A stretch of DNA of 64,000 nt from Diadema antillarum. Its lineage: Eukaryota. The stretch lies in NCBI RefSeq assembly GCF_040938485.1, contig NW_027271507.1:1798001-1862000 (forward strand), written 5' to 3'. Shown piece after piece: positions 15,106 to 53,755 of this stretch (the first letter of the stretch is position 1; the number at the start of each line of letters is the position of its first letter). The notes below the pieces were generated by a model. The model was not told the origin of the DNA, made no database searches, and was given only the letters and a program-made list of their open reading frames with translations. The translations under genes were made by a program, and so were the position numbers.

Positions 15106-16063
15106 TACATGTATGCAATTGTACTGTGAAATTTGATTCTCGTGCCTTATTTCCCACATTTTCTTTTTTATGTTAGGCATTGGAGGAAAACCTACTCACT
15201 CTTTTCTTTGCAGGGCTCTGCATGGCAAGCTGTGTCAATTGCCTACCAGTACAGTACATAATTTGTACAGGTCAAGTCAGAATGACATACACGTGTGCAT
15301 TCTGAATGTTTTCCTGTGTACCCAAAACTGTGTAAATTCCATGTGTGACTGTGTGAATACTTTGTGGAGACTGTTACCAGGTAGTCTTCACTGATTGTGT
15401 ATTAACCAGTTCACCATGGACCATTAATATTATGTAATGGTCGAGTATACATACAATGTACAGTGTACTCTGTACTTTGTGCGGACCATGATATTACATG
15501 CTGGTCATATTGTTTGTTACCAAGTGTCATCACAGCAGCATGTACACACACTCTGTGCCTACTGTACTCCTAGCATAGACTCTGAATAACAGATTCTGAG
15601 ACTGTAGGCAACAACTGACTGTACCCTTTCAACAATGATAATAAAGATACTAATTAGAGATGATAATATGCTAATGACAATAATGATAGATTATAATCTT
15701 CATGAAATTAGGAATTTCTCTGCCATTTGTTGATATCAGTGAAAAGTACAATGAGGTATTTTAAAGTAAAAAGTCACTGTAAATTCAGGCGAATGATTTC
15801 ACTGTTCACTCATAAATAAACACCATGTGTTTTTCCCTTCTTTGATTTGTGTGTGTGACAAATAACGCTCACCACACTGGTGCTCAGTGGAGGAAATACA
15901 TTGTAGCTTGCAGCAGTCAAGTGCTTAAAAACAAAAGCAGCATTCTAATAGCCGAAGAAGGTGCAAGGGAAGTTGTGTTTGTAGCATTCATCCTCCCATT
16001 TATGTTCATATTCCTATCTGTGGGTCTGGCTCAAGCATTCTAGAATGCTGCTTCATATGACCT

Positions 16064-16361
16064 TTAAAGGGATGGTGTATAGTTTTGGTTGTGGTCCGAA
16101 TGAAAGGTGGGACCCATCTCTTATTTGGACCGCTTTGGACCACATTGTGTTTTTTTTGATATCTCAGCCATTTCAAAGCTGATATTTAAAACCACTTCAA
16201 AGATGTCAAAGAGCATACAATTCTAAGAGGAATTCAAAGTTTGTTTGATGAAAATTGGTCTTGAAATAGCTGAGATATAGATCCAAAAACAAAGTGGTCG
16301 AGATGAAAGGTTGCACTCACCTTTTATTAGGACCACAACCAAAACTATACCATCCCTTTAA
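16064..16361. mobile_element. TTAA-flanked Kolobok-like MITE
   Basis: AGGGATGGT..TAGTTTTGGTTGTGGTCC / GGACCACAACCAAAACTATACCATCCCT. Confidence 0.72.
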
Positions 16362-17267
16362 ACATGAACTTTCATCTTCTTAGATTGTCAAACTATGACA
16401 TAGCATTGCGGGGCAAATACATTATAAATATCATACGTAATTTCATGTGTGGGTTACAAAAAATGTAATATAATGACATCCAGTCTTCAGATAATGAATT
16501 AATAATGACTTTGACACTTCCACTACCTTTTGCTGCATGTGAATGCTGATGACAACACCCTCTGTCTATTAGAGACAAATATTTACCCACCAGTATGTAA
16601 TAGGGATGATTAAAGGTTTGATGTTGGGCGTCATCAGTGCATTACTTACCCAGGAAGTATACTTTATGCATGGTATGATATGTAGCAGAGTATTATATTT
16701 GTGAATTTTGTGAGTTGACAAATTATTTTGAAATGTAAACTTGAAAAAATGTCCTCCCGTAACTGTCTTGTATTAAAATGGCATGCATGTACGATCATGT
16801 CTAAGGCGGAAATCTCTAAACTTTTCTTTTGAAAAGTGAGAAGTAATTCTTCTTCTTGAAGTGTTAGTATGGCTCTGGATCCCAAATTCAGCACTCCCAA
16901 AATTGTCTTCCAAGTCAACTTCACAAATTATTATATTTGTGAAATACATGTACATGGCGTGTACAGTATGTGTAGACAGGAATAGTGTGAAAGTGCCTTT
17001 TCATCATCTAAACTGTACAGGCAATGTGCTGATTTGTATGAACAAAGACCGAGTTGAGGCAGACTTTAATCAATGTAATTTTGTTGCAGTGCAGGTGTTA
17101 TTGTGATTATGATTAGTACTTTGGAACAGCTCTGAAAAGTGCATTATGTTCTGCATGGATGCATTTGTATTACGTTGAAGTCAAGATGAAGTCTCAAATT
17201 TATTGGAAGTGACATACAGTACCACTGAGGAGCATCACAGAGCCAGCTGTGCAGAGCTGTAGTCATG

Positions 17268-17451
17268 ATACTGTAAAAGTGGACATTTTCGCAGTGTGGA
17301 AAATAAAAGCGTGTGAATATATTTGCATGCCATATGTTCCTGTAGTTAATGTTCTGATTCTGCGGAATTAAAAACATAAGGGTATGTGAAATTCATCTAC
17401 ATGGCCTTGCACAAAAATATTACTCGCACAGAAATATCCACTTTTACAGTA
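17268..17451. mobile_element. TA-TSD MITE
   Basis: TACTGTAAAAGTGGA...TCCACTTTTACAGTA. Confidence 0.75.
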
Positions 17452-17561
17452 AAGTCATTTGGAAACAGAATTGTTGTGAAAAACCTGGTCAGTAAATCTG
17501 TATAATATACATGCATGTACAGGTCATTATCTCATCTTACATGTGTCAAAATGTAATTCAA

Positions 17562-17726
17562 TACAGTGCACTCCCGTTATAATGAACACGGTTATAACAA
17601 AATTCCAGTTACAACGAAGTAAAAATTCAGGCCGCAACATTATCCTCTCTGTGTATTTTTATTGTTTATTTGTTCGATTATAACGAAATTTCAATATAAC
17701 AAAAGAAAACTGCCGAGTCCACTGTA
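17562..17726. mobile_element. pogo-like TA-TSD MITE
   Basis: TACAGTGCACTC...GAGTCCACTGTA, homologous to 51691-51880. Confidence 0.7.
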
Positions 17727-20087
17727 TGATTATTTTCTGGTGTAGCATACAAACCATGAATACATGTACAAAATGTAGTACTACAATTGATTGCATTGTT
17801 ATGAAAACATACCATACATTACCTGATATTCCCTTTAAAAGGGCTTGTAGAATTGTTGCAATTTATCATTCGTCAATATTGTTTTTTCAGAGTTATCTTA
17901 GCCCGTATCCTGTAGAGCTGCAACCTTTGCTAAATTTGTAACCATGTCCATGCATATCAAGAGATTATAAAGCCATTTTCATTTGCAGTCATTCAATCAG
18001 TGGTACCCTGTCGGATCCCCGCTTTGGTACCAATCTTACATATTAGTCTCCTGCTTATTAAAATACAATACAATTTTGTAGTCATGATACACAGCCCTCG
18101 CTGGTTTCATCACGGTTGACTATTGGTTTCATCAACATGACTTCACTGGGTGCTGCTTTGCCTCCGCTAATATTTGATGACTACCTCCACGGACAGTAAA
18201 ACAGGGTCATCAATAAAACCAGTCTTGCATAATTTATTGTTTATGGGTTGGATCTGTCACAGAAATGCACAGTTATACCAAGACCCTGACAAATTAGGGT
18301 TACACGCCACTATGACTCATGCAGAAATATGATTGCTCTGGTCTGTGCTGTCTGTGAACACTTGTGGGTGTTCTGTTGTTATTTTATTCTATTTTATTTT
18401 CACAGCACATTGTCCGTATCCACATTCTGCCATGTATAGCACTCTACTAGGAATATTCACTTTGGTGGTACCTGCCTAATAGTTACTATGAATCACATAA
18501 TGAATTGAGTGATTCACAATGTGCCCAAAAAAAAAAGTGTTTTTCTGCAAAGTCAGAGATGAGCTGGCCACCTAAAAATTAAGTCTGTGCTTTTGATGAC
18601 ATGTTTTTCCAAAATGATGTGTAGAATGTCACTTGCCATACACGCCAATGGTACAGGTATTCTTCATGATTTTCAGAGTGTAACCTGTATGACTGTAGAT
18701 GGCACCAAGCAGAATTAATCACCTTTTTTAATAGTAGTGTTGATAGAATGTTGATAGAATTGAACAGGATCTCTGTCGTACTTCTTATCAGTTCCAAGCA
18801 TCTTCCATGCAGTTTCATTGCCAGAGGATGTTTTTATCATATAATGATTAAGTGTCGTACTACCGGTACTTTATTTTCATATTTTATGCATACAGGTCTT
18901 CATGATTAGGGTTTTTCTTAACAAGCAAGAAGCCCCCTTCCCCCACTTGCCCAACATAGCAATGGGTAATGCATGCAAAGTGCATTCCAAGTATTAGAAC
19001 ACGCTCGGTACGTGCAGGTGGTGGAATAGCTTGTTAATAGATCGTGGGAGGGGGGGGGGGCAGGGGGATTTCATAGCTTTGAATAGACTATAGTGATAAA
19101 CTGGTGTGTTCCTTGTTCAAACATAAACACTGAGCAGTATTTTATCAACTATAGATGCAAATCCAATATGTGACTGACATGAGCCCAATTCTCAGATTCC
19201 TTCAGATGGCCATTATCTGTGAGTGTGAGGTCTTCTACTTTTCAATTTCACCAACTCTGCAGAGTGTATGTTAACTGTTTTTAGCCCCCTTTTAGAGCCC
19301 CTTGCTGGAAATGCCAGATTCACAGGGAACAAAATAGTGAAGATAATCAGATTAGCCTCCAGTCCAGGTTCTGTGCTATGAGTTGATGATTGCCAAAATA
19401 GATAAGCACCTGCAAAGAACGAGGTAGGATATGCATGCACTTATGACATACACATATTTTACCCAACAAAAATATTAAAGATGACACATAATTTTGCAGT
19501 CTTCTAATAATATTGAAAAGAATCTTCCATTGATGATTCAATGCTCCTAAATTAGATGTATTTTTTTTTTGTATTTATTTGTGTATAAAATCATTTATTT
19601 ATTGATACTTCTGGTCTGCATAAAAGTAGAATGCAAAAAAAAAGAGCAAAATAAACAAATTGAAGAAAAACCCCTATAAGACCTGGAAGATATGACAGTC
19701 TTTTAGATCATGTACACTGTAAGTGCAGTTTCAGCTAATCCTGTGGATCATAATAATTGACCAAATAATGTTAGCCACAAAGAGAATTTTTATCAAAAGT
19801 TAGGTAGCCTGATATGAAAATACCTGTAAGAGAACTTGTTGAGAAGATAAAAAGAAGATGAAATACTGCGTAAACTACTATATCAAAAGAAATAATTCTT
19901 AGAATTGTCAACTATTGGTCATTGTTAAGTAATTTATTTTCCTTCATTTTCAAAGTTTTATTTTGTCAAGAGTTGGGGCTCGTAATTCACATTGGTAAGA
20001 TGCAGCATATAGAAATTCACTTTTTTTCACCTGATCCAATAAATGACATTTGAGTGATTTTGCATTCTTTGACCTTGTTTTTTTTTT

Positions 20088-22322
20088 TTATTCCCCCACC
20101 CACACATAGTGTGTATGGGGGTATATAGGAATCACTCTGAAGTCGGGTGGCCGGTCGGTCGGTCAGGTGGGCGGGCGGTCGGTCGGGCAGTCGGTCCGTT
20201 GCAAAATCTTGTGGATCGAACTCCGCTCTCATTTTTTGAGCAATTGACCGTAAATTAGGCATGTGTGACCACTATCAAAGGTAGCTGTGCAAGACACCTT
20301 TATCGGTAGTATCGCATAATGTGTTGGCATGGCAATGGCATATTTTCATAAAAACGTGTGGATTGAACTACACTCTCATTTTTTGAGCACTTAACCCCAA
20401 ATTTGGCACGTGTCTCCGCTATCAAAGTAAGATGTGCAAGACACCTTTTTCGTTAGTATTGCGTATTGAGTTGCTATGACAACAGCAAATTTTACAAATA
20501 TCTTACAAAATGTTGTGGATCGAACTACTCTCATTTTTTGAGCAATTGACCCCAAATTTGGCATGTGTGACCGCTATTAAAGGTAGATGTGCATGACACC
20601 TTTTTCGTTAGTATTGCATAATGCGTTGCCATGGCAACGGCATATTTTCATTAAAAAACTTGTGGATCAAACTACTCTCATTTTTTGAGCAATTGACCTC
20701 AACTTTGGCATATGTGACAGCTATCAAAGGTAAATGTGCAAAATACCTTTTACGTTAGTAGTGCATAATGCGTTGTCATGGCAACAGCAAATTTATTTTA
20801 AAATCTTACAAAATGTTGTGGCTCAAACTTCTCTCTCAGTTTTATAGCAACTCAATTGAAATTTGGGATATACGATCAATATAACGTGTAATTGTGCAGG
20901 ACACATTTTTTTTGCTTGTGAATAGATCTGTTGCCATGGCAACAGCAGTTTTTTTTTAATACAATCATACAAAAATATGTGGATTGACCTAACTCCCAGA
21001 TTTTTTTGCGAATTTGACTTGAATTTTGGCACATGTGACCACTACAGTATGTAGATGTGCAGAACACAGGTCTGTTGATGTTGAACAATGCGTTTCCATG
21101 GTAACAGCCTTTTTTCACTCAAAAGAATATAAAAAAAATGTGGATTCAGCTAACTCCCTCAGTCTTTCAGCATATGCCTTGAAATTTAGCACATGTGACT
21201 TCTGTGGTGCACTTGATCTTTCGTCATTGTTGAACAGTGTGTTGCCATGGTATTGGTAACAGCATATTCTGAATGAAAATCATACAAAAATACTGTGGAT
21301 TCAGATATCTCCCTCAGTCTTCTAGCATTTGGCTTGAAATTTGGTACATGTGACCGCTATAGTACGTAGATGTGCAAACTTAATCTTTCGTCAATGTTGA
21401 ACAATGCATTGCCATGGTAACAGCATTTTTTTCACAAAAAGGCATACAAAAATATTGTGGATTCAGCTTACTCCCTCGGTCTTTGAGCATTTTGCTTGAA
21501 ATTTGGCACATGTGACCGCTATAGTACAAAGATGTGTAAACTATATCTTTCGTCATTGTTGAAGAATGTGTTGCCATGGTAACAGCATATTTTGAATGAA
21601 AAATCATACAAAAATACTGTGGCTTCAGTTAACTCCCTCAGTCTTTGAATATTTGGCTTGAAATTTGGCACATGCGACCGCTATAGTACAAAGATGTGCC
21701 AACTTCATCTTTCGTCATTGTTGAATGATGTGTTGCCATGGTAACAGTATATTTTGAATGGAAATCATAAATATTTGGAATTCAGTTTAGTCTCATTTTT
21801 TGTTTATCATTTGCCTTCAAATTTGGCACATGTTACCACTATATTAACTAGCTATGCAAAATTGATCTTTCGTCATTGTTGGAAAATGTGTTGCCATGGT
21901 AACAGCATATTTTGAATGAAAATCATACAATGATATTTTGAATTCACCTAACTCCTAGATGGTTTTGAGCATTTGACTTGAAATTTGGCATATGTGACAG
22001 CTGTGATATATAGTTGTGCAAACTTCATTTTTTCCAATGTCAAACATTTTGTTGCCATGGTAACAGCATTTTTTAATGAAAATCATGGAAATTACTGATT
22101 TATTTGCTTTACTCATTCAGGTTTTGAGCACTTGACTTGAGATATATATGGCACATGAGTATCAGTGAGCAAAATATACATTTCTTCAATGTTGAACAGT
22201 ACATTGTCATGGTAATTGGGTTTTTTTTTCAATAAAAAGAATACAAAGTCATCATTGCTAGTTGAGCTAACTCCCTCAGTGTTAGGTGGGGGTATTAACC
22301 ACATTGAGTGATACTTCTAGTT
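20088..22322 (+). mobile_element. Helentron/DINE-1-like element, family C, with internal satellite
   Basis: ATTCCCCCACC...GGTGGGGGTAT subterminal IR, (GGTC)n microsatellite, CTAG end, poly-T flanks. Confidence 0.78.
20200..22280. repeat. tandem array of ~13 diverged units of ~147-165 bp
   Basis: Recurring GTGGAT.AACT...AAATTTGGCA...GTTGCCATGG(C/T)AACAGCAT in each unit. Confidence 0.9.
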
Positions 22323-24599: not shown

Positions 24600-24800
24600 T
24601 ACTGACTTACTCTGCAGCACATAAAGTCTGTTATGTGTCAATAGTGAAAACAGCATTGCCCTTTTCATGTTCTAAGAAATACAATGGAGCAATTTCAAAA
24701 GTATACATCACTTCTTTCGTGGCTTTGTTTACAACAGTGGGAGGAATACTCAGCACTGTCAATATTTTATGGCAAAATTTGCTTTTTCCCTGTGACATTT

Positions 24801-26003
24801 TTATGCCTCCGCCACAAAGTGGTGCCGGAGGCANNNNNNNNNNNNNNNNNNNNNNNNNNNNNNNNNNNNNNNNNNNNNNNNNNNNNNNNNNNNNNNNNNN
24901 NNNNNNNNNNNNNNNNNNNNNNNNNNNNNNNNNNNNNNNNNNNNNNNNNNNNNNNNNNNNNNNNNTGGACAGGGTAACTATCAAAACCTTTTGAGGTATC
25001 CTAATGAAACTTGGCATGTATGTGTATCAGGGGGTGAAGTTGTGCCTATCAACTTTTGGGTGCACATGCTCAAGGTCAAAGGTCAAAAGCTCAAGGTCAA
25101 ATGCTTAAAATTTAACTATTTCCCCCATATCTATGCAATATCTGAAGATATTTTCTTGAAACTTAGTGTATACATGTATTACCCAATTAAGATTCTCTGG
25201 TGAAAGTTTGGGGTCATGAGGTCAAAAGGTCAAAGGTCAAAAGGTCAAGTAAAATGTTAAAATTTCACTTTTTTCTCTGTATCTTGGAAATTGTTCAAGG
25301 TATCTTTATGGAACAAAGTATATATGCATGTACTGACTGGCAGTGGTTATCTAGGGAATTTGGGGTTCATGTGGTCAAAGGTCAGGGGTCAAAGGTCAAG
25401 GGCAATACTTCAAAATTTTACTATTTTCCTTGTATTTATGCAATGCCAGCAGGATTATTTTTTTTAAAACTTGATGTATGCATGTATAACCCACTAGAGA
25501 TTGTCTGGGATTTTTTTTTTGCCAAGAAGGTCAAAGGTCAAAAGGTCAAAGATCAAGTGAAAGTGCTGAACTTACTTCTTTCTCCATATCTCGGAAGTGG
25601 CTCAAGTTATCTTTAAACATAGTACATATTTATGTATGTTCTACATGACATTGATTCTCTTATGAATCAAAGGCCAGATGAAAATGATAACAATTTACTG
25701 TTCAATACAGAAATTGCACTTTTTCTCCATACCTTGACAATTACTCAAGTGCGTAAACTTATGAAAGGGTCAAAGTCGAAGTTAAAGTTCTTAAATCCCC
25801 AAATACATGCTCTCCTATTCATCCAATTAAACATAGGTCAAAGAAGGTGAACATTCGATACATTTGCGACAAACATGTCATTTTAATATTTTGCCAATTT
25901 TGTGAAAATGTAATCACACATTGTCCACATGTACTATAGACCTATTAGGAGAATCATGCATTATGGCGGAGGCATACCAGTCGCCATAGCGACATTTCTA
26001 GTT
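24801..26003 (+). mobile_element. Helentron/DINE-1-like element, family A copy 2
   Basis: Clearly homologous to 6079-6996. 3' hairpin GTCGCCATAGCGAC. The N run sits where the microsatellite is expected. Confidence 0.8.
24834..24964. other. assembly gap or masked run (131 N)
   Basis: N run. Confidence 0.98.
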
Positions 26004-26649
26004 TTGGTTTCTCTGATAGAGACTTGGCTCTGTTTCATATTGTGTGAAATTAAGATATTACGTGTAAATATGCTGGTTAAAAAACATGAACATGCCAGTA
26101 TAGTCAGAACCCTGTCAGTGTCTACAGTAGTTTGTTTGTCCAAATGCAGAGAGCATGTGTGGCTATAGTGCTTTGCTCTTTATGCATGGCTCTTTGTTGG
26201 TGTGCAAAAGATGCAAAAACTTGCACTTTGGCAAGTATCAGATTAGGTCTCGTTATTGTAAGGGTGGTTATGACAGTTAATACACACATGTCATGTCCTA
26301 TTTGAGCTGGTCACTAATTAATCCCTCTGCCTGCTGCAGCCTGATGCCTGATGTATTGATTAGTCCATTTCAGCTGCCCAAGGTTAGAAGTCCCACTCAG
26401 CTAATAGCATCTCTTTTTATATTGACTTACTGTTAATAAATCACACTGAATTAATTAAAAAGGTGGAAAGCTAAAATTAGCTATAACTGGAGAGTTCCAG
26501 TGTGGCAAATTCTGTGATGGTTAGATGCATTACCATGAGATCATCTGTGTACGTAGTATTACCAAAGTCAGGATGAAAGCTTTCTTGAAAGACTGGCTGT
26601 GTACTAGTACTGTAGTCCGTGTAAGCTGTATAAAGTGTAATCAATCTAA

Positions 26650-27130
26650 GGCTGCGTTTATCTAAAAATTTTCTGAGGCAGTGTCACGATCCTAAACGCG
26701 TTTCAGGCATTTTCAGGGGTTAGATAAACACAACCCTGTTTTCAAACGCGTTTAGAAACGCTGTTTTGAAACGCCTTTCAAAGGGCGTTTTGAAACACGT
26801 TTGAGACCACGATGGCCGTTCTGGGAGTAGATAAATGCAATGCCGTTTGAAACGCGTTTATATCTCAAGGTCAAATCCAGCTGTTTCCGGTTGTGCTCTC
26901 TACCCGTTATTTGTGTGTGACTGATGAGGCATGTTTGGTGGTATGCAGTTGACCTTTACTTCCTGGGTCAAACGGCGCAAAGCAGCTGCGCAGTGACACC
27001 ACTCGAATTGCGATTGTATGATGGTTAGATAAACGTCAGCACCCTGAGAATCGCGTTTCAAACCACGTTTGCAAACACCGTTCCAAACGCGTTTTGAAAT
27101 GTGATTCTCTCAAGTTAGATAAACGCAGCC
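26650..27130. mobile_element. PIF/Harbinger-like MITE
   Basis: Perfect 16-bp TIR GGCTGCGTTTATCTAA. Internal AAACGCGTTT palindromes. Confidence 0.75.
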
Positions 27131-27356
27131 GTAGTTAGCACAATTCAGGAAAGTTTGGGACTTCATATTTTAAAAATCCATTCACTTTTAATGTACCCAC
27201 AATGTTGTTTCATAGGCAGTCATTAACAGACTTATACCATGGGACCTTACCCTGACAAATGTCTGGACAGCTTCCCTCCAGAGTTAGAATTCCTTGTCTT
27301 AGGCAGTACAACTGCTGGAGAGAGCAAGAGATGCTATCTTGATAGACACACACCGA

Positions 27357-29588: not shown

Positions 29589-29795
29589 CTGTAAAACGAG
29601 AAATGTTCGCGTGCATTTTAATTTCGCGAATTTTGCGAGCGCCAAGATTGGCGAAATTAAAATGCACGCGAAACCTCTTATCTACACTATATGCATTGAA
29701 TGCAAGAGGCAATTCGCGAAAATTTCTTGCCACGAAAAAGGCCGTCAGCTCCAATTCGCGAAAATTTCGTGCCGCGAATATATCATGTTTTACAG
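29589..29795. mobile_element. 207-bp TA-TSD MITE, copy 2 (inverted)
   Basis: TA|CTGTAAAAC...GTTTTACAG|TA. Confidence 0.85.
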
Positions 29796-33333: not shown

Positions 33334-33425
33334 TTAACCCATTGAGGACGGGCTGATTTTGCTCCAACATGCATTTCCCATAGACACTTGCCCGAGTATA
33401 CTTGAGACTTGTCCTCAAGGGGTTG
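33334..33425. mobile_element. ~90-bp piggyBac-like mini-MITE
   Basis: TTAACCCATTGAGGAC...GTCCTCAAGGGGTTGA. Confidence 0.65.
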
Positions 33426-35315
33426 ATGTAGCATATTTTCTCTTGTAGTACTGTATGATGTGATAGGTATTATGTTTGTTGTACTTTCATTGGTGATGGT
33501 TTGCTTTTTTCATCTATAGGCAAATGCTCCACCATGTTTAGGCCCTTTTGCAATCCTTGCACCCCCCCCCCCCTTGTCAACTTCTTTAATCTTTTAAAAG
33601 GAAGAAGATGTCTGAGTAATTCCATACTGGTGATGAAAGAGAGAAAGAGAGAGAGAATATGGGATAGGTAGATATAAAGATAGACAACTGGTGCATTGCC
33701 TGTATTTAAATATGAAAAAATAGAGAAGGAGGAGGGGGTCAAGAGAGGCTGTAAGGGAAGGAGTGAGAGAATCAGATGGAGGGAGAGTGTTGCATGAGTC
33801 AGCCCCAGTCAGGCATCTCTGTCATGTGATGTCATGCCAGTCACGCTGGTGACATTCATCTCCATGGGGACCTCAGCATTCCTGCCTTGGATAAACATAT
33901 CTGTCTCTTCTCTATAATGAGATTCTCTATCATACCCTCCCCTCCCCCCCCCCCCAAAAAAAAAAAAAAAACACACACACACTCACCCTGTTCCTGTAGT
34001 TGGGTGCAGAAAAAGACCAATGAATTACGAAGTTTATACATGATGTATCATATTGAAAACAAGCTATGTTAATTCTATTCAAAATCAGTAGACCTGTAGT
34101 CTACAGTGGCAGTATGCCATAAGTTACATAAAGAAGAAAATGAAAAGCCTACCAAGACTTATTTCATTTGTTTTTATGCAAATGTATAAATGCAATTTTC
34201 CTGATATCTTTGTGAAGCAGAAAGAAAAGAAAAAGAGACAAATCATATGAATAAAGGCCATTTAAGCTGAAAAGTATCATCCTTATTCACCAGTAAATAT
34301 GTAGGTTAGGATTTGCATTTTGGTGAGATAAATGTAGAAGGCATCGAACATCTATGAAGCAGAATCAAATCATGTGGCTGCAATGGCCATCTTGATCCCA
34401 ATCAGTAATTAGTTTGAATGACCAGTGATGATTTCCTCTCTTATGGAAGCACATCTGCTGCAGAAGCTAGTAAAAAGCACCAACAACAACAATTACATAT
34501 TCCTCTGTTAAACATGGGACATCAGTGAAAATTTATGGAGAAAATAGTACATTGTTGGGCACTTATCTATTGTTCAGATTTAGCTCTCAGTGTCGTAACG
34601 TACAGGCTAACCTTGGTAAGGTAGTGTAATTATTGGATTAATATACTGCAATGGTACAACTACATACAAGCAGTTGAGTATTGTGACTTGAAGTGACTTT
34701 GATGGTATTTAGTGATAACTACTTGAGTCATATCATTCAACTTTATACAGTGATGTGTAATAAAGTCAATTTGATTTCATGTTTCTGCATGCATATCATA
34801 TACCTAGTGGAGCATTGCTTAATTACTAATGTTCAGAGTGAGACATACACACATCTGCACATAATTAGATGTTATTCAGAATGTAATATTGCACTTGTGC
34901 AATGATGCATGTCTTAACTCCTAAGAGGAGACCTCCATTTCAAAAAAAAAAAAAAAATGTTTTAATAATCATTGTCCCTGCTTTGCATACCTGCCCTAGC
35001 CCCTGAACCTGAATGGCACAATTGAATGTTTCTCCATGAGCCATGCCATTACCTCTTTCAGTGACATGAAAATGTACTCCGTCACCTTACAATGCAAAAT
35101 GCATAGCCATCCATTTCTGTGTAATTATATGAGTGCCATTGCTGCGCATAATTCAACCATCGTTTCTTTCTTACACTCATCCCGTTGCCTGAATGCAGGT
35201 GGCCCACGGGGGCAGCATGATGCTCACACACCCAGAATGACCGACTCGGATTCCATTTAGCGCAGCACGGAGGCCGTTCCCCCGAGTGCTTAGCAGTCCA
35301 CGCATCGCTGGCACC

Positions 35316-35369
35316 ATGAGTGAACAGGAGAGACCCAGGAGCAGGTCTGCCTCACGCTCCCCTAGACAG
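35316..35369 (+). CDS. ALMS1: ALMS1 coding exon 1 (MSEQERPRSRSASRSPRQ)
   Basis: GCACCATGA start context, an in-frame upstream stop, and donor CAG|GTGAGG in phase 0 matching the next exon. Likely acceptor for the UTR part at 35199. Confidence 0.65.
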
Positions 35370-38300
35370 GTGAGGATCAGTGCACTTTAGGGATGTACAC
35401 TGTATGACCCTATCCTTCTGTCATATTTGAAAATGAATCAATTATGAATTTTGCCTTATGAATGGTCCGAGCAAAATATACTTCATGTGAAAAAGATACT
35501 AATTGCCCATTGCCTTTCAATAGCAAGACTTTGGAATCCTTAGGATCACAAAGTTTTGTTGAGAATTTAAATTGTGAGAAATGTATTTTGTTGAAATATA
35601 GTGATTCATTCATAGTATGGCTTGTAAATGGCTACTAAGTATTCAGTGAAAACAGTATTCATTCAATTTTCATTCATTCAGTGTTTGAATGAAGTTCAGG
35701 TTAGGCCATTATATCATGTAGTGGTTTTGTAGGCAATGCCTACCTTTGTGCAAATTGTCCAACATTTATCCATCAAAACCCCAATGAGCTATTAAGATAT
35801 TTTTATAAGTGGTACCTCCTGGATAAGAAAGCTTGGAGAAGCCTTGCACAAAGAATCTTTCTTATCAACCGTATAAACTAGCCGCCCTTTTGCATGGAGT
35901 AGCTAGAAACACCCATTATGTACTTCCATGCATGAAATTTATGCTGCCCTGGTCATTAACCTGTATCCACCAGTGTCGTTATGCAATTTAGAAGCTGTTG
36001 GTGCCAGAGACTATATATTTCATGCACATTTACTTAACTGTGCTCTCGTAACTTCAAATTGATATCACAGACATCTTTGAGGAGGAAACTTTATGAAGAA
36101 ATGTATATCAATTGAAAGAGAAATTAATTGTCTTCACTATAGGAAGTAAATCAGAGTCCTTTGATAAATTATGTGACATTACATTTTATATAAATATTTG
36201 CATGTACATGAAATACAAACTATAAATAACCATATTGCTTTAATTCAAAAGAAACCACTCATGAAAAAAAACAAGATCTTATAAAGGAAAGACAATCATA
36301 ATTTTTGAAATCTTCATGATGTAGGCTTTCCAAGGGTATACCACTCTAGTGTGGTCTTACTCACTTATCTATAGATGGGACTACAGTAAGATATGTATGC
36401 ATATGGCATTGTTTGATCTCATTTTACATGTAGACCTATTCCGTTAGCTGTAAACTTCCAATACTTTAAAAGTGAATGCCAATCCAAACAATAGAGATAG
36501 GGAGCGAGACAAGGGACTGTGGGATATTGGTCAAAGTTTGAGGGCTATAAAAACTCTATAAATGACATCATTGTCTTAAGTTATTTGTGCTACGGATTAT
36601 CCCGTAGTTTGGTGATTGCAGCGTTTTTGCAATGCTTAGGCATAATTTATGATGTATCAGTCTAAATCTTGGTCAAATTCTGTGTACTGCGTACACAACA
36701 ATGCTATCACTCATACAGTCATGTTTTTGCAATGTTAGTCAAATTGTACAATGTTTGTACTGTGTAGCTCCTTTATTTCAATCTGCTTGGTGGGTTAATT
36801 GTACTGTTCGTGTGATGCATTTTGTTCCCTACGGTATTTCATTGTACTTTTAAACAATAGTTCTGTATTGAACAGTTTGAAATTAAACATTGATATTCAC
36901 TTGATTTACGGGTTATTCATGAATGAAGTAAATCCTTTTCTAGATATTTTAAGGCACCCAAGCAATACTTGAGGTTCATAAAAGAAGTATAATGTGTATC
37001 CATTTTTCAATTTATCTGGTGTAGATGCTTCAGATCCCAGTCCTTTTAGTACTAGGTTTGTGTCATGCACATACTTTGTAGCTGTAATTATTGTATTTTA
37101 TACTTGACATTTACATTTAATTGCCTGCGCCTCAGCTCTGATTATTTTTTTTTTTCATGTGACAGCCGTATGAAGTATTGTCAAATGGTAGTGAGCAATC
37201 ATGCCAACTTGATATGTTTTTCATTTTGGCTTTACCCACACTCCTTGGATGTAAATACTTTATGCTTCTTTTGTTTCGTCATAGGACTCCTGGTATACTT
37301 TGGTCCAGGAGGAGGTCCTGGTCTCATCACCGTGCCCTTCACCACGGTTTTCTGGCTCTGGAAGCAGCAGTCGAGCGTCGTCCAAGGCCAGCAGTGTGTC
37401 TTCCACTCCAAGGAGAACCCAGCATCCACCTACCTCATCAACGACGACTGCTGCTAGTGATGGTCACTCATCTACTCTTCAGAACTCTACTCTTTCCCAG
37501 TATCCATTAGAGGAAGAGTCCCCTGTCCTTGTGGTATCAGGTGGGACTGGTGTGTCTACTGCCGGGCAGGAACACGCTAGTGCAGATGCCCACCGAGATG
37601 TCATTTCACCTCTCGGGGGAGTGACTAGGGATGATGGTAGGCCTGCAGATGACCTGTCGCCGATACCTCCACTCAATCTTGCAGCCCACATGGACTCTCA
37701 GGAAGGAGATATGTTGAGACCACCCGCTGATGACTCTGGAGGCATCACGAAAGAGATGTCTCCATTTGTGGAAGATGACGAAGGCACCATGATTAGCAGT
37801 GATACCGATATTCCTATTCCATTCTCGGATGCTGATGAGAATGACGGCAGTACCTCGGAAGGTGCGGGAGGGTTTGGTGGAAGTATGGTCAAAGATGCTG
37901 TTCAAGAGGCAATTGCTGAAGTTTCAGCTGACCTGGTTAGTGGAGCACTCTCCATGTCCATATCACATCATGAAGTGGACTCTGCCACTGAGCAAGAAGA
38001 ACTTAAGGATGATGCAAATGTTTTTAATCTTCCTCCAAAGAGTGCAGTTCAGGAGATTGATGACACCCTGGATTCAGCTGCAACAACGCCATGGCAATCT
38101 GAAGGAGTAGAGCAAGCAACACCTTCTCCAGTTGAGCCTGCACAAAGAGAAGGGAATGGATCGACATCGGTTGAAAATCAGGAAAGTCTGTTGCCAGGAG
38201 AAGATAGAGAAACAGGATTAACAGATGCTGTACGCACTGACAGAGACAGTCTTAGGGCAATAGTTATAAATGAATGTGTTGATGGTAGAGCTGAAGTTGC

Positions 38301-41300
38301 GTCAAGGGAATCAGATAGTGAACATCTTGCCCTGCCTGACTATGACTCTGGCCACATTACTTCCACTCACTTCGAGAGCAGTGCCCAGTCAGCTCACCAT
38401 GAACAAACTGAAGTGACACCTCAAACCCAGTATCAAAGAACCTCTGTTGAAAGTCATTCAAAAGACTCCTTAGATGCCAAATACTTATCTCCAACAGAGG
38501 TGGATATTCATCAAGATGCCCAGTCTTACATCCAATACCCCAGAGATCTGCAGAGCTCACCTCATCACATCGGCCTCTCAAGTGACGAAAGCTACGCAGG
38601 TGATGGTCGACATGACAGAAATCTGGACAGGCATGAAAGGACCACTGGCATACACTATGCTAAAAGAGATCAGGAGAGTGAAGGAGATCTGCTGGCAAGG
38701 AGGGTGGCACTACTCCTCCAGGTCAATGGAGATTTTGATGCAGAAATTGCAAAATGTACAGCCACCCCATCAAGGGCTTTGTCTGGCAGTATGTCGTCTT
38801 CGGTGACAGGTAGCCCTGACAGCATAGAAGAAGCCAATCTTCCTCTTGGCATTCTCTCAAGAGATGCCAGTGGTTCACCAGCAGCCCATAGGAGAGGAGA
38901 TGGTCAGTCGTTGCCTGCAACATCTAGGACAGACTCCAGTGGGAGCTCTACGGACTCGCTGGCAGAGCATGTCAGGCGCCTTCTGCAGGAATCTGAAAGT
39001 TTGCGCAGACTTCATGAGGCAGGTATCGACACCCAGCAGCTCCTCAATATCCAGGCTGAAGTTGGCAAGAGTTCTCCAACCATATCTGAGGCGAGCACAT
39101 CAAGCTCAGTGCGAGATATCATTAACAGAGTGGTGAGGCGTTCAAGGACCGGTAGTGAGAGTGATGATGGTTTTCAGCTGCAAGAGGAAGGCCACTTGAC
39201 ACCCTCTCCACGTATGCCAGTCAGTGCTGGAAGGCCGGTTGGAATCACAGGTTCACGGTCACGAGAAGATTCTGGGCTTAGTGACAGCAGCAAGATTACA
39301 TTTCAGCAAACATTTCAATCCAGTCGTGCCAAGGAAGGGGCTCATTCAGTAGATTCACATCACTCTTCTGAGAGCACTCTCACCAGGGACTCATTGTCAC
39401 AGCGAGTTCAAGAGCTTCTCAGTGTTGTTGGTGAAGGTGTAAGTCAACCATCTGTAGCACCCAGTGGTAGTCTTTCTAAAGAAGATCTGATTGCCTTGAT
39501 GCAAGTGGCTGAACTGGAAAGAAAATTGAGTGAAGGGTATGTTCCATCACAGAGGTCCTTTTCTCCAAGATCAACACAGAATTCTCGCATGTCATCCGTA
39601 AGGGATGGTGTCAGCAGTTCTGTTTCTGGAAAAGACACTTCTGTTGCTAGTGCTGATTCGTTAGCACTTCGGGTCCAGGCTATCCTTGGTAGGGAAGCTC
39701 CAGGTGAAAGAGTGGATCGGATAATATCTGAGGCACTTAGTGCTGCAGAAAGGAGTCAGTCTCAGTCACCTTTAGGGAGCAATTATTCTAGCCCAAAATC
39801 CCATAAAACTCCCTCTCCGCGAGATGTCCAAGATCCCTCCACAGTTCCAAGTTTGGGATCTGTAGCCGACCTGGTTGAGCGGCCATATGGAGCATTTGAT
39901 CACGCTCGAGACATGCTGACTCTGCACCTGCAGCGCCTCACTGATCGCACATTTGATCACAGTGTAGAGATGGGCACACCCTTTCAACAAGATACCAATG
40001 GCAATGTAATGAATATGAAGCAGTATAGTCCTCAAACACTTCAGTCATCACAACAACGGTCTCATCATGAATTCCAAACACCCTCTTCACATTCAATAAG
40101 CAAGCCGATCTCCTCTGAACATGTGTTTTACGGACTCTTGCCAGAACAAATACCTGGCAATGTGCATATGGATCATGATCAAAACTTAGGCGAATTTCAT
40201 CCATTGCCAATGGAGCATTCACCAGCAAAGCAGAAACCATGGCAAAGAGATCTACCCCAGCAGTACCATCCATATCAGAGGTCTCCTAGTAAAGGGCAGC
40301 GTCCCAAAAATGAAAGTCTGCGAAGAGACAATAGCAGTGACCTGGATGACAGCCTGTTTATCATGGCAAGATCAAAATCATCACCAGAGATCAAGGTGGA
40401 CAAAAAGCTTTTTCCTGGAGTAGAGTCATTTGCTCCTTCTCACCAGCGTTCCGGTTCTTGGGGGAGGCAGTCACAATTCCAACAGATGAAGCAACCTCTA
40501 CCTGGTAGCAAACTCCCTGTTCCTTCACGCAGTGATGCAGTGCATGGGAAGACCTATTCACAGGAGCAACAGTATCCCAGTCGTCCAGCCTCCCAGACTC
40601 CACAGCATCTGCCCTCCCAGCAGCCGCAGAGTCCAACTGCTCGTGAGATGTACAGTACCAACAGTTGGCCACGGTCCCTCTCCAAGTCCAGGTCCTCCAG
40701 TGGGATTACCACCCAGGGCCAAAGCCCTGGATCACCATCAAGGCAGAGCCTCACAAAGGATCCCTTTGTGACAGATGGGTTCCTGAAAGCATACAGACCT
40801 CCAGGTAGCTCAGAGGTTATCTACACATATCCCGTTGATGGACAGGGAGTGAGGGCTACCCATGGCTCTCCAACCATGAGCTCTACCACCATGGAAAGCA
40901 CTCACACAGGTTTGTTGGCCCCATATTCATGGGATTAAAGGGGGAGGCTAGTAAGTGATCAGTGGGAATCAGTGGAAATGCTGGGAGATGATTGTTCCAA
41001 TCCTTATTGGATTCATTCAAGAGTTCATTGTATATCTATTGTTGTGTGAAAATGATTTGCTTCAGAACGGTCTCATATTCAAATAATGTGCAGATTAATG
41101 CTCCGTCACTGACCAGGGACGCTAACCTGGAAGCATTAAACTACACATTACTTGAATATGAGACCATTCTGAAGCAAATCATTTCCACACAACAATAGAT
41201 ATACAATGAACTCTTGAATGAATCCCATAAGGATTGGAACAATCATCTCCCAGCATTTCCACTGATTCCCACTGATCAGTTACTAGCCTTCCCCTTTAAG

Positions 41301-48500: not shown

Positions 48501-51500
48501 TGGCATGGTTTGTATCTGCAATTAAAATTTCTTGTGCATTTGCTTTGAAATAAATGTGTGCATGGATATTTCCTGAATTATTGAACTCTAAAACGAGACA
48601 AGTGACATATATTTTATAAATGTCTCTCCCCTAAGCAATATTGGGGCACAAATTAATTTTCCATATTTTGTGTGTGAGTACTCTTTTGTGAGTGCACACC
48701 AATGAGGTGTTCTGAATGAGCTATATGTTGCCACAAATGCTGTATAGAACTGCTGCAAAAAAAAAAAGAAAAAAAGCTTGGTTTATTTTGGTGAAAATCT
48801 GTTGTAAGTGTATTTTTGTTGTGTGACACAGAATGACATAAGATGTTATGGTGGAGGGAGAGAAGGTTTCATAAACCAATTGCAGTAGAAAGACAGAAGA
48901 AATGTTAAACAGGACTTTCATAGAAATGACTTTTCATAAAGCAAGTCATTTGAAAAATGTCTTTGTATTTTTTTTCTCTTTACCAGAATTCCAAAGAAAA
49001 TAGTCCAACCTGTTGCATGGTTTCAGCCTTTAAGCAAGAAGATGCCATGGCAACAGGACACACCCACCAAGGCCAGACCGCAGCCAATGAGCTTTCCAGC
49101 CAAAGGGGACGAAGAAAATGTCAAGGCAGGTGACAAGGCTTCTCTGCAGGTATGATGAAAGGATTTTTGTTTTTCTTCTGTGTATGCATGTATTACCTGG
49201 AATTGACTAAACACTTACATTGTACATTTAGAGTATGAACAAGGCATTATGATCATGTTGCATGAGAAGTGGATAAACCATGGCATCATTGTTTGTTAAA
49301 ATCCCAGAGTTATGTTTTCGATCCAAGTCATTTTTTATAGTGTGACATACTTTCAGTTGAAATGGTAGGAATGGAAGGGAATTGTGGAAAGATATTGTGC
49401 CATTATCTGTAGGAAAGGAAGCAGTGTTTAGAAATGAATGGGATAATGAAGTAGAGCCAGGTGCTAACTAAAAACACATTTGAAAAGAGCTATGTATACC
49501 ACACTGTCCTAAAATTTGTTACTGTTTCATTTAAAAGTTTGGCTAGTATCAGTCGTTCACCTGCAAGGGTTGTCAGCCATAGTTGCAAAACCAACTACCT
49601 ACATGTAACCACTGAAATGGTATGGTCAAAGTGCAGAAAGGCCCCTTTTTGTATGTGTCAGTGAAAATGAACAAGAAGAGACATAGTGTGTCTTTATTCA
49701 GGCAAGAACAAAGTGGCCAATGTGTATGACATTCAGCACATGACTGGACAGCCCTGTCAAATCTTAACCCTCTGTATATGACAAAATGTTTAGAAACAGA
49801 TGTGTGTAGTCAGTTTTCCCCGTGTCCAGATTCCATGTACTTTTGTTATGAGATTATAGATATGAGTTTAGTATTTTATGTGAAGGGTACTGTTCATCAC
49901 ATACCAAATGTATTACACTGTCCTGTTCATTGAGCTGGAGTTAATGTCTGCTATTGTCACTCTCGCCCATTTTCCCACTCACCTTGCAGGAAGCTTTCGA
50001 AAAGTACCGCAGCGACTTCATTTCGAAGTCCCGCGAGCGGCAGCGCAAAGTGAAGCTCGCCGCAGAGGAGCGCCACACCCAGGCAATGTGTGAACTGGAG
50101 CGAGCCCAGATCTTCCACGATCAGCGGTCCAAGAAATCCAACCCAATGCCCACCCACTGAGTGGTGAGTCCCCTTGTTCATCTTTGCATTCCTGTCCGAA
50201 CTATCTAAACAGTTGGCTTTTGCTACTGATTATTAGACCATTTTATGAGTTATGCAGTTATTCCTTTTTGTGAAACAGTCCTACAGTGAATTTAATTAAA
50301 GTGTTCTTGTTCAGAATCAAATACTTTCTATCTTTCTTTCTTCATTTATTTATTTTATTATGATTTTTTTTCTTCATTTTTGTGGTGTCATATTAATGCT
50401 CTTCTGAATTTGTCACCTCATTTGTTAGACATTCATCACAAAACACTTTTAAACTGTCATTTCATATACATTGCTGACTGAAATTACAAATCTCCTTGCA
50501 CTCATTTTCATTGTAACCCCCCGGCATGTATGCCAGAGGATACTTTGGATTCATTTCCATTTTCATTTCACTTGTCCATACCCTTACATGCATACTTGCC
50601 AACTAATAAGATTTTATCAGATTCAGTAAGATTTTTTACATTAAAAATAGTAAAATAAGATTTTCTGTCAGAGAAATAAGATTTAAAGGGTGTGTACAGT
50701 TCTGGTCGAGGCGAGGATTTAGCTTTTAACGTTTTGCGAGATATTCAGAAACCACTCTATGAGATGTCAAAGAGCATGCAATTCTAAGGGGTATCAAAAG
50801 TTTATTTGATGAAAATCGGTTTTGAAATGGCTGAGATATCCAAAAACAAGGTGAAACAAAGAGATACTGTCTAATAAAGTTGTGGCCTGTCGCCTTTTAT
50901 TATTATCACTTTTTTGGATATCTCAGCCATTTGTAAACCATTTTTCATCAAATAAACGTTGAATCCTTCTTAAAATTACATGCTCTTTCATATTTTATAA
51001 GAAGTTTCTCATTATCTCACTTAGGACTGTTCAAAACATGAATCCCTCACCTCAACCAGTACTGTACAGTCCCTTTAAAAAAATATTTAGCTATACCTTT
51101 CATGTGTATTTTCTGAAGATTTGACCGAAAGTAAGATTTTTGACTTCAGTTTGCATATAAAATAAGATTTTTGCAATCCACGAGTAAGATATTTCATCTT
51201 GAAATGTTGGCAGGTATGTAACAAGATGAAGAGATGTTAGTGTAGAATATGATTACTGCCCTCGGGCTAGAACATGATTAAAGGTGGTAAGTATTGTATA
51301 TTCTTTTGTTCATTTGTTCATCTGATCTTAAAAGTTAATCTTTGCATAGTGATTGTAAAATAACTGCTGACCATGTTGCTAAGCTCATCTTATTGTGACA
51401 TTGCTCTTTCCTGTTCCAGACCAACACCACAATCCCAAAAAGCGTGCAATATCAAAGCGACAAATGAGAGAGCACACAGAAAGGTAAGTAAAATAAGTCT

Positions 51501-51965
51501 ATTCTTTCTCTTGTTTACATGCATGTGTGTGTGTGTTAATGTTCTCTCTTTTTAATTCCTTGTAAAGTTGTATCTTTGAAATGCTACCCCCAATTAATGT
51601 CACACAGAAAATATACTCACACTGTAACCAAGTTGCTTCAATGATTTGAGAATTTTCCACAAATTACAACTTTCTGTCACCTTGATGCTGTACATTGCAC
51701 TCCCATTATAACGAACACGGTTACGAAAAAATTCCTGTTGCAACAAAGAAAACAAAGTAAGACATTATCTGCCCTTGTTTTTTTTTTTGTTGTTGTTTAG
51801 TTGTTCGGTTATAACAAATTCAATATGATGAAAGAAAACTGCTGGTCCTGGGGACTTCGTTTTTAACGGGAGTCCACTGTATTGAGTACCAAAGTGTGAT
51901 GTCATAGCCATTCATTGCCATGGAAACTGGTTCTAAACAACCTCACATAGCCCGAAAGTATGTGA

Positions 51966-51996
<31 letters not shown>

Positions 51997-53755
51997 GGGG
52001 GGAGTTGCTGACCATGTTCAAACAAAAGACTGTGACATCATCACTTCATTACTCTATACTTTCAAGTCAAATGTGTCCTTTAACACAACGCTGCACACTG
52101 GCACTGGTCTGACCAGTAGCTTTTTCAGGAATGGACCAGTGAAAAATTGATAAACTGGGTACCTACTGGTCTGACAGACAGGTCAGACCAGTAGATGTAA
52201 AAAAAAAAAAAAAAAAAACGGGTTAGTGTGCAGCCCTGTTTAACATGTATTTCTGTCACATCTCTCCTGGTAAAGGTTGTACAATCGTCTCCCTGAGGTC
52301 AAGCAGAAGGAGAAAGAGAAGAAGAGGATGCAGGATTTTGAGCTGAATCGACTCCGGGCTCAGATCTACCGAAAGGTATGTCATCGTAGCCTTTGCTAGC
52401 ATCGTAACATGAGAAATTCCACTGCTGAGCATCAGTCTTTTGAAACTGCATGCACACAAGATATCATTCCTGCTGTTGATATGAACCATTTCTTTTTCTT
52501 TCTTTTCTTTTTTTTTTAATTTTCCCAGGAATTTTAAAGATTTTTTCCCCTCTTTTTTATTATATCTTTAAACAACTTTTCTTCATTTGTGTAAACTCTA
52601 AGTGAAGTGAGATGACAATTTGCCTGCATGCAATAGTCCTTTTTTCCTCATTTGTCTTAATTGGTTCTAAGATTTCTCCGTCATGATGATTGCAAATTGG
52701 TTCGTAAGCTCCTATGCTGTTGTTTATTATGTGATGCCAATTGAATAGTGAGCTTTGATAATCCTTGGTATTGATAGAGTTAAGCCTACATCTAGATTCT
52801 TTGTGTGAATGCAGTCTTAAATCATCAATTTGTTTTGTTATTGTTTTTTACTTTTAGTTTTTCTCTCTGAGCATGCACCTTGGCATTCACAAGCTTTTCA
52901 TGCGAATAAAAGTGAAGGGAATTTTTTTCTTTTTTTTGTGTATGATCTATTGTACACTTCATGCTAACCATTCCATTGTCATACATAGCTTCTTGAATAA
53001 ATTGTAAAGCCACGAACATTTATAATTCTGTACTCCATACAGTCCAACTGACGCAAGTCAATCTCTCATGAGTTGATTACTCAGCTAAGTCAGAGCTCCC
53101 ATAAAGTTAAAAAATTATATTAGTTTTTGATGGATTCAACTTGTGGTAGGGTGGCTGTGTGAAGTGTGAACAGATGTTCATCCATGAAGGTTGTTGGTCT
53201 TCACAATGTTTTCAGGCTGATGGTGTGTCGGAGAATCAGGATTTTGCTTTACATTAGGTGATATTGAACAATACGCCGTGTGAAGTAATGCCTATCATAC
53301 TGATTTCTTGCATAGTGTTTGTTTTGTGATGGGGATATTGATTAGGTCATTGTGGAAAATGTATTGATTTAATGGCATGGTTTAGAATAGGTTCATTTAA
53401 TTGCTAACAATGTGACCTTTGTTGTGTTTTAGGAAAATAAAATGAAAGAATAAACCAGTGAAAATGTTGTCTGTAGTTCATACATTTTAACTTTTGCTAC
53501 TCAGAATCGAAGAAGAAAAATGAATCTTAATCTATTCTCTGGCATTTCATTTCTTTCATTACAACTGATTGACAAATTGCCCTACATCGACGTAAATAAG
53601 CACTGAATTGATCAGTGTTTTACGTCGATGTAGGGCAATTTGTCAATCAGTTGCAATGAAAAACATCTCGACGGAAGAAAATTTCATTTCTTTGTTGTTT
53701 ATCTTCACAGAAACTCAGTGACAAAGTCAAGAAGAAGCCATGGTCGGGAAATTGA
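35316..53755 (+). CDS. ALMS1: ALMS1-like centrosome/basal body protein, 11 coding exons, ~2211 aa (one frameshift in exon 8 as assembled)
   Basis: All introns are GT-AG and phases match except for 1 nt in exon 8. C-terminal ALMS motif: SLQEAFEKYRSDFISKSRER...HPLSD...ISKRQMREHTERLYNRLPEVKQKEKEKKR...NRLRAQIYRKK. Other blocks resemble vertebrate ALMS1 as I recall it: YRPPGSSEVIY, TTMESTHTGSDDAHAPSFP, WDQY...VDRLAHLVQDPV, WFQPLSKKMPW. Confidence 0.9.
37285..40909 (+). CDS. ALMS1: ALMS1 giant coding exon 2 (3625 nt)
   Basis: Polypyrimidine tract then TAG|GACTCCTGG. Coincides with the 1212-aa ORF. Donor ACAG|GTTTGT, phase 1. Confidence 0.9.
40935..41299. mobile_element. fold-back (palindromic) TTAA-flanked MITE
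   Basis: About 165-170 bp near-perfect inverted arms with a short spacer, TTAA at both ends. Confidence 0.88.
41584..43832 (+). mobile_element. Helentron/DINE-1-like element, family D, with ~120-bp subrepeats
   Basis: TAGCTCACCTGAGCCAAAGGCTCAAGTGAACTA hairpin, (CGTCCGT)n, subterminal CTCAGGTGAAC, 3' hairpin GAGACCCCTGGGTCTC. Confidence 0.8.
42811..43598. mobile_element. piggyBac-like MITE nested in the family D element
   Basis: TTAA TSDs, CCCTAA...TTAGGG termini. Confidence 0.78.
44208..45043 (+). CDS. ALMS1: ALMS1 coding exon 3
   Basis: TTTAG|GATCTGATGAT joins to give THTGSDDA. Donor CAG|GTAAGC, phase 0. Confidence 0.9.
45529..45748 (+). CDS. ALMS1: ALMS1 coding exon 4
   Basis: ACCAG|AATGAG, encodes NEADPRYREASAMWDQYQ...VDQFVQ. 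Donor AAG|GTACTG, phase 1. Confidence 0.88.
45752..45958. mobile_element. 207-bp TA-TSD MITE, copy 3, inserted in a splice donor
   Basis: TA|CTGTAAAAC...GTTTTACAG|TA. Confidence 0.85.
46460..46598 (+). CDS. ALMS1: ALMS1 coding exon 5
   Basis: CACAG|ATGAGGAG. Donor GA|GTACGT. Phases 1 and 2 fit the neighbouring exons. Confidence 0.82.
47166..48380 (+). CDS. ALMS1: ALMS1 coding exon 6
   Basis: TGCAG|GTTTCAG. Lies within the 431-aa ORF. Donor AAG|GTAACT, phase 2. Confidence 0.88.
48987..49149 (+). CDS. ALMS1: ALMS1 coding exon 7 (WFQPLSKKMPW...ASLQ)
   Basis: Long pyrimidine tract then ACCAG|AATT. Donor CAG|GTATGA, phase 0. Not listed in the ORF track. Confidence 0.88.
49990..50163 (+). CDS. 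ALMS1: ALMS1 coding exon 8 (start of ALMS motif; 1 nt short)
   Basis: TGCAG|GAAGCTTTC encodes EAFEKYRSDFISKSRER. Donor GTG|GTGAGT. The exon is 174 nt but 175 are needed to keep frame. Confidence 0.85.
50591..51218. mobile_element. hAT-like MITE host
   Basis: TIR CATACTTGCCAAC / GTTGGCAGGTATG and repeated TAAGATTTT. TSD not recognisable. Confidence 0.55.
50683..51078. mobile_element. TTAA-flanked Kolobok-like MITE nested in an older hAT-like MITE
   Basis: Same family as 2936-3325. Confidence 0.72.
51420..51483 (+). CDS. ALMS1: ALMS1 coding exon 9 (DQHHNPKKRAISKRQMREHTER)
   Basis: TTCCAG|ACCAA and donor AAG|GTAAGT. ALMS-motif residues. Confidence 0.88.
51691..51880. mobile_element. pogo-like TA-TSD MITE
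   Basis: TACATTGCACTCCCATTATAACGAA...TTCGTTTTTAACGGGAGTCCACTGTA. Confidence 0.7.
52086..52238. mobile_element. hAT-like MITE, 7-bp TSD
   Basis: CAACGCTGCACACT / AGTGTGCAGCCCTG flanked by TTTAACA. Confidence 0.65.
52276..52375 (+). CDS. ALMS1: ALMS1 coding exon 10 (LYNRLPEVK...NRLRAQIYRK)
   Basis: Less common AAG acceptor (TAAAG|GTTG). Donor AAG|GTATGT. Core of the ALMS motif. Confidence 0.9.
53554..53661. repeat. near-perfect inverted repeat (~50-bp arms)
   Basis: TTTCATTACAACTGATTGACAAATTGCCCTACATCGACGTAAA...TTTACGTCGATGTAGGGCAATTTGTCAATCAGTTGCAATGAAA. Confidence 0.9.
53711..53755 (+). CDS. ALMS1: ALMS1 terminal coding exon (KLSDKVKKKPWSGN*)
   Basis: TTCACAG|AAACTC in phase 0. Ends ...KPW, as I recall ALMS1 C-termini do. 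TGA at 53753-53755. Confidence 0.82.
   Translation, partial: KLSDKVKKKPWSGN

Follow-up and report, generated by a model that had tools for sequence, protein, structure and literature searches.

The X-box recognised by RFX transcription factors is conserved at the level of the lineage in the repeat arrays of non-autonomous Helentrons (HINEs) of Diadema antillarum, whereas the link of one such array to a neighbouring gene with ALMS motifs looks ordinary. In these arrays the box that is kept is the motif of a named transcription factor, the constraint is assignable to the transposing lineage rather than to the inserted copies, and the box recurs in unrelated repeats, so that the reason for the existence of the central repeats of HINEs, and of their conserved boxes, becomes testable.

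The window, that is, the whole 64-kb stretch of DNA that was analysed, contains an array of 13 X-box-like sites (Table 1). The original prediction described them as palindrome-like, and on re-reading of the window every coordinate and letter string proved correct. The sites are 147-167 bp apart and 12 of them match GTTGCCATGGCAAC with at most three mismatches. The entire window holds 20 matches at this threshold, while shuffled sequences lead one to expect 3.6. The RFX consensus RYYNYY N1-3 RRNRAC, taken from PMC4168999, fits 10 of the 13 sites, which bears out the identification of the motif as an X-box. When the 13 units are aligned, the box is the most conserved 14-mer (mean pairwise identity 0.86 versus 0.64 for the average column), as had been judged by eye. 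The suggestion that the near-nucleosomal spacing is a special design found no support, since units of 140-180 bp are general in HINEs, including those of the oyster (PMC7492417), and since the pattern used in the metagenome scan described below itself fixed the spacing.

Table 1. Features of the array, its carrier element and the ALMS-motif gene. All coordinates in table and text are positions in the 64-kb window unless another contig or locus is named.
Feature	Position	Strand	Basis
Box 1, degenerate, 2 mismatches, outside the RFX consensus	20323..20336	.	
Box 2, 2 mismatches in the window copy, perfect in the other haplotype (C335)	20470..20483	.	
Box 3, perfect palindrome	20625..20638	.	
Box 4, 1 mismatch	20772..20785	.	
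Box 5, perfect palindrome	20930..20943	.	
Box 6, near match; 3.1-kb inverted-repeat element inserted 27 bp before it in C335	21092..21105	.	
Box 7, broken by a 6-bp insertion in both haplotypes	21241..21260	.	
Box 8, first base off the family form in the window copy, not in C335	21408..21421	.	
Boxes 9-12 (21570, 21732, 21890, 22051), exact GTTGCCATGGTAAC	21570..22064	.	
Box 13, degenerate; last unit degenerate throughout the family	22203..22216	.	
Non-autonomous Helentron (HINE), older subfamily, ~2.2 kb, inserted in a T run	20087..22321	+	
5' subterminal repeat (1 mismatch to family form) and inverted partner, forming the 5' hairpin (fold -10.1 kcal/mol)	20089..20125	+	
GGTC/GGGC microsatellite next to the 5' end	20142..20196	+	
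Central array, 13 units of 147-167 bp, one box each	20203..22280	+	
3' subterminal repeat, decayed 3' hairpin, CTAGT end	22285..22321	+	
Exon with splice acceptor and inferred start codon (35316), which shares the reading frame of the long exon starting at 37285	35199..35369	+	by eye; X1 contig depth 23
Long coding exon in the ALMS-motif gene, of low complexity and without Pfam match	37285..40906	+	
Two exon stretches matching Pfam ALMS_motif	49975..52384	+	

The carrier, which had been called Helentron-like, has the anatomy of a HINE at 20087-22321. Subterminal inverted repeats, of 11-15 bp in HINEs, are present near both ends, the family form being ATACCCCCACC on the 5' side and the reverse complement of this ahead of the 3' end. 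The 5' repeat is followed by its inverted partner and then by the microsatellite, while the short hairpin near the 3' end, clear in family copies, has decayed in that of the window. Where both ends of a copy were located, they abut T, and the flanks vary from copy to copy, as judged from occupied sites. The copies are dispersed, and no ORF of 120 aa or more lies inside the element. A family search with the first 721 bp of the element as query gave 2456 first-look candidates, 40 of which were scored. Exact 3' ends of the family number 321 in the assembly, which contains both haplotypes. Young full-length copies measure about 2.7 kb and carry 16 units, and lengths range from 2.0 to 3.4 kb, so arrays gain or lose units and exchange between units must occur. 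The nearest relative of the window element among the compared copies is 86.9% identical over 2.1 kb.

The element is present in both haplotypes. In the other one (contig C335), the array is split by a nested 3,147-bp element (C335:349357-352503) that has short inverted repeats at its termini and a target duplication of 4 bp, and that is absent from the window haplotype; from its ends and duplication we take it to resemble Sola-type transposons. An apparent lack of two boxes in the C335 copy was an alignment artefact, both boxes being kept there.

The genome yields 136 Rep-domain matches, many of them in open frames of about 3400 codons, and the G-S-P signature of Helentrons (PMC4067079) is found in 29 of the 30 Rep-domain loci read. 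Dozens of intact Helentrons with such ~3,400-codon frames are near-identical, which suggests recent activity. The box was not found in 30 intact-Helentron loci examined together with 1.5 kb of flanks. The window also holds two copies of another HINE-like family (6070-7000 and 24800-26000), whose 3' terminal hairpins (6973 and 25980) resemble the X-box, and a variant of the second family described below likewise terminates in an X-box-like hairpin. Such hairpins are a possible origin of the motif, or may resemble it by chance. Further along, 59051-61185 contains broken frames with a weak BED-finger match and is probably a decayed hAT-like transposase.

Constraint on the box is seen in the lineage of the element. 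Variants common to several copies, which arose in source elements, are rarer in the box (7 in 196 columns) than in the flanks (182 in 1947; p=0.005). The same box is carried by a second HINE family, whose ends are related (family 2, the window element belonging to family 1). Twenty-one unit types were compared, of which 14, taken in succession, came from the majority sequence of family 1 and 7 from a single copy of family 2; all were located by their box, and the two degenerate terminal family-1 units were left out. In this set 13 of the 14 box columns are invariant, as against 9 of the 144 others. Flank identity among these unit types is 0.67-0.68 within families and 0.52 between them, and the RFX consensus fits all 21.

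The only free column of the box in this comparison is position 11. Once the box is folded on its palindrome, position 4/11 likewise accounts for 207 of the 259 mismatches of young loci of family 1, for 123 of 243 among its old loci and for 39 of 48 in the second family; the commonest box forms are asymmetric. This position corresponds to the N in the RFX consensus, and its variation is what a tolerated N position would show. Because it varies without symmetry being restored, which is not what a hairpin would require, and because it coincides with the consensus N, the constraint probably reflects the binding of a protein to double-stranded DNA.

After insertion the box appears to decay like its surroundings. 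CpG columns were excluded from these tests. Among 15 mostly young copies (those, out of 20, with both ends found), private changes affect 23/2855 box positions and 300/28309 non-CpG flank positions, a difference that is not significant (p=0.24; odds ratio 0.76, 95% CI 0.50-1.16). For old copies, 40 loci had been chosen by their 3' end and hence independently of the boxes; 20 of them were used, namely those of the older subfamily without haplotype duplicates. Here again box (59/1592, 3.7%) and flank (613/15222, 4.0%) do not differ significantly (p=0.59; odds ratio 0.92, CI 0.70-1.20), and the box changes fall on all 14 positions. Only segments whose flanks were at least 82% identical entered the old-copy test, a filter that lowers the flank rate and so biases the comparison toward the null, and the same segment could be used for more than one unit. 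The window copy, compared with its own subfamily, shows 6/166 box and 95/1554 flank changes (p=0.23, low power). Against C335 it differs at 2/174 box and 21/1712 flank positions, with a third box difference at 21408. The expectation that a regulatory element at this locus would keep its X-boxes better than their flanks thus found no significant backing in these low-powered comparisons. An apparent protection of the window copy (box 5.6% versus flank 16.4% against the young-family majority) was discarded, as it mixes in subfamily differences and the gap within its own subfamily is not significant. The three post-insertion point estimates (0.76, 0.92 and 0.58) all lean slightly toward protection, none significantly, and a minority of functional copies may be hidden among them. 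Lineage constraint combined with decay after insertion indicates that the constraint is limited to copies that transpose, and that the box probably serves the element.

The same box is also found outside these two families. Two other repeats of the genome (L064 and L071) carry it at a spacing of 165-182 bp in flanks unlike those of families 1 and 2 (z mostly below 3). One of them, at L071:2300-4900, is an element with long terminal inverted repeats and non-HINE ends, whose three boxes lie 179-182 bp apart in mutually unlike flanks; boxes are therefore not limited to Helentrons. Metagenomes scanned for pairs of boxes at a distance of 130-160 bp, a pattern that itself fixed the spacing and letters of the box, yielded at least 121 stretches. 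The 121 listed form five clusters (110, 8, 1, 1 and 1 members), and one of them has a weak BLAST match to family 1. One metagenome locus (L128) has HINE-type ends by eye and another (L090) resembles family 2. The box-bearing metagenome contigs presumably derive from host-animal DNA. At 110 metagenome sites off the pattern, position 4/11 leads modestly, with 46 of 180 mismatches. Phage records gave no match.

We somewhat favour an explanation, resting on sequence comparisons, in which host RFX aids the spread of these HINEs through the X-box kept in every unit, for instance by opening the element or by driving transcription across it. Each array unit would offer one site, and bound host RFX would help source copies to be copied. 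In germ cells or early embryos, RFX would open chromatin or drive transcription across the element, and an opened element would let the Rep-helicase, supplied in trans, reach the ends. The genome does encode RFX DNA-binding domains (19 matches), and human RFX1-4 group together by testis expression (PMC5838959). Six-letter parts of the X-box are rare in the array table of the oyster supplement (PMC7492417), and oyster HINE arrays, as far as that table goes, seem box-free; HINEs can therefore move without the box, which speaks against a universal need for it. A more far-reaching version holds that RFX has been hijacked by a class of rolling-circle elements widespread in animals, each internal unit being a landing pad through which this ciliary and sperm regulator of the host opens the element for copying. 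This we regard as possible but rather doubtful. If it were true, the roughly 14,000 perfect sites per haploid genome, mostly in arrays, would form the main RFX-bound compartment; the arrays would act as a sink setting free RFX levels and as a standing supply of ready-made ciliary enhancers.

The reader of the box might instead be some protein besides RFX, for example one that the autonomous partner encodes, or the box might act as a structure or recombination point that holds the units in register during rolling-circle copying. Lineage-only constraint would be explained equally well in this way, satellite units commonly contain palindromes and conserved boxes (PMC12628747), and the palindromic form does fold, if weakly (-5.9 kcal/mol). 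However, the commonest form, representing 22,640 of the 27,591 exact sites in the assembly, is asymmetric and folds poorly (-1.1 kcal/mol), and the occurrence of an identical 14-mer in repeats with unrelated flanks is easier to reconcile with a conserved host factor than with proteins specific to each family. In addition, contig C1 carries two intact Helentrons in 1.2 Mb without an exact box among the matches listed. We consider a non-RFX reader or a structural role unlikely, although less so than the two explanations that follow.

Alternatively, no selection need be involved if the box stays uniform through conversion among adjacent units or because it mutates little. The box is devoid of CpG, and units are indeed exchanged, as the variable array lengths attest. 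Yet CpG columns had already been excluded from the tests, the box mutates at the flank rate after insertion and hence is no cold spot, and the invariance ends sharply at the box edges while skipping position 11. Uniformity without selection is thus improbable, and assistance by host RFX remains the reading that we prefer for the family as a whole.

As for the window copy, its neighbour is a gene that matches Pfam ALMS_motif at two places, 49975-50142 and 52271-52384. The assembly contains four such matches in all, the rest being on the second haplotype (C335). Together with the long low-complexity exons, these point to ALMS1 as the putative identity of the gene; six long ORFs searched against Pfam gave nothing above the cut-off. 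The original prediction placed the array 13 kb upstream of the ALMS1 start. This is right for the distance to the inferred start codon (35316, read by eye) and does not hold for the promoter: the exon of that codon has a splice acceptor, and a spliced, transcript-like contig of run X1, whose RNA origin is a guess, spans the coding exons and extends about 240 nt further 5', so that transcription must start elsewhere. Comparison of the contigs with 25000-44900 and 700-20600 listed no piece upstream of the spliced coding exons. The mean X1 depth in bin 1364-2027 is 7.96, the value that 230 nt at the contig depth of 23 would produce, a weak hint that exon 1 lies in CpG-rich DNA around 1.4-2 kb and that a long first intron contains the element. 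The first 3000 nt of the window are CpG-rich, partly repeats, with two weak X-box consensus matches (1722 and 2382), and are a candidate promoter region of the gene. From about 3 to 57 kb the DNA is CpG-depleted outside repeats, which suggests gene-body methylation. An intron of the gene also contains a 139-bp tandem repeat (42028-42427) without X-box match.

Arrays of this kind are common. Exact matches to GTTGCCATGGYAAC in the assembly number 16,058 in forward and 16,484 in reverse orientation, leaving 27,591 sites once the 4,951 palindromes counted twice are subtracted, while the reversed motif used as control gave 0 and 3. Exact boxes sit mostly in such arrays, and in genomes like this one such repeats, unless masked, would swamp searches for ciliary genes by their X-boxes as well as analyses of RFX motif enrichment. 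Eleven arrays of at least three exact sites lie in the 3.96 Mb spanned by the matches listed, about 2.8 per Mb, so the chance of encountering one in any 55 kb is about 14%. Proximity to ciliary genes (16 genes: tektins, B9, radial spoke, DM10, IFT57, IFT46, BBS5 and TPH) was compared with that to 14 proteasome genes, in 40 kb around the 5'-most domain match and with one haplotype per gene. Arrays of at least three near-matching sites were found near 3/16 ciliary and 1/14 proteasome genes (p=0.60), which excludes only a large excess. Compared with the expected 1.7, the ciliary count gives p=0.23, the sample being too small for a twofold excess. None of the arrays lies within 9 kb of the 5'-most domain match in either set. 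Exact matches per Mb amount to 14.1 around ciliary genes, 8.9 around proteasome genes and 18.5 genome-wide. The enrichment of family copies near ciliary genes that had been envisaged was thus not seen in this small sample. A relaxed X-box scan upstream of the same genes fails to separate ciliary from control (7/16 versus 4/14, p=0.47), and hence could not serve as a positive control for X-boxes of promoters in this species. Single exact boxes at L062:2718 and L067:3046 lie in CpG-rich DNA without an array and look like ordinary promoter X-boxes.

It was also proposed that the window array works as an RFX enhancer of the ALMS-motif gene. In favour of such co-option, the RFX consensus still fits 10 of the 13 sites, the copy is shared by both haplotypes, human ALMS1 is, as had been stated of the mammalian gene, RFX-regulated through a proximal-promoter X-box (PMC2913254), and the heat-shock-element arrays of Helitrons do drive nearby genes (PMC6927752). 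But an array at such a distance is no rarity, ciliary genes show no excess of them, and the window boxes, not significantly better kept than their flanks, differ between haplotypes, in one of which the array is split. Moreover, validated human X-boxes are no further than about 500 bp to 2.3 kb from the start site (PMC5838959), and the copy resides in CpG-depleted DNA suggestive of a methylated gene body. Co-option is therefore very unlikely. The array most likely lies beside a ciliary gene by chance, and the window copy is likely to be a neutral passenger. This accords with the caveat of the original prediction that the motif may be a family trait and its place coincidental, as arrays are common, no ciliary excess appears in the small test and the boxes are unprotected after insertion.

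We found no published description of X-boxes in Helentron arrays, in a literature search that was thin on subscription journals and did not extend to Repbase reports. In its architecture, the Diadema element resembles HINE/DINE-1-like Helentrons (PMC4067079) and Cg_HINE of the Pacific oyster (PMC7492417), which likewise have a 5' subterminal repeat with inverted partner, a microsatellite, a central array of 140-180 bp units, a 3' subterminal repeat with hairpin and no coding capacity, and whose T-rich target the Diadema element appears to share. The difference resides in the units. Those of Diadema have an invariant X-box, whereas those of the oyster share two common conserved segments, for which the accessible parts of the report mention no factor site (PMC7492417).

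The closest known case is that of the heat-shock-element arrays in Caenorhabditis Helitrons, where a rolling-circle element likewise carries clustered sites of one host transcription factor (PMC6927752). HSF-1 binds these arrays, and they represent a large share of such sites in the genome, and a selfish origin has been proposed for them (PMC6927752). There, binding and effects on nearby genes have been demonstrated, and the sites overlap in tandem (PMC6927752). Here, the RFX sites are putative, occur once per 150-160 bp unit and were found in no excess near target genes. The promoter X-boxes of human ALMS1 and HEATR2 (PMC2913254, PMC4168999, PMC5838959) have the same consensus that fits 10 of the 13 window sites, and consist of one or two conserved sites near the start site. 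The window array, in contrast, comprises 13 sites, far from any mapped start and decaying at the flank rate.

The Rep proteins of AAV and of Helentrons are both HUH enzymes. In AAV, too, a host RFX factor is bound within a replicon of single-stranded DNA, since RFX1 and RFX3 bind the D sequence of the terminal repeat (PMC5760533); in the Diadema element binding is putative. The AAV replicon is viral, with one site per terminal repeat and a measured effect on transgene expression (PMC5760533), while the Diadema arrays hold many putative sites inside a transposon.
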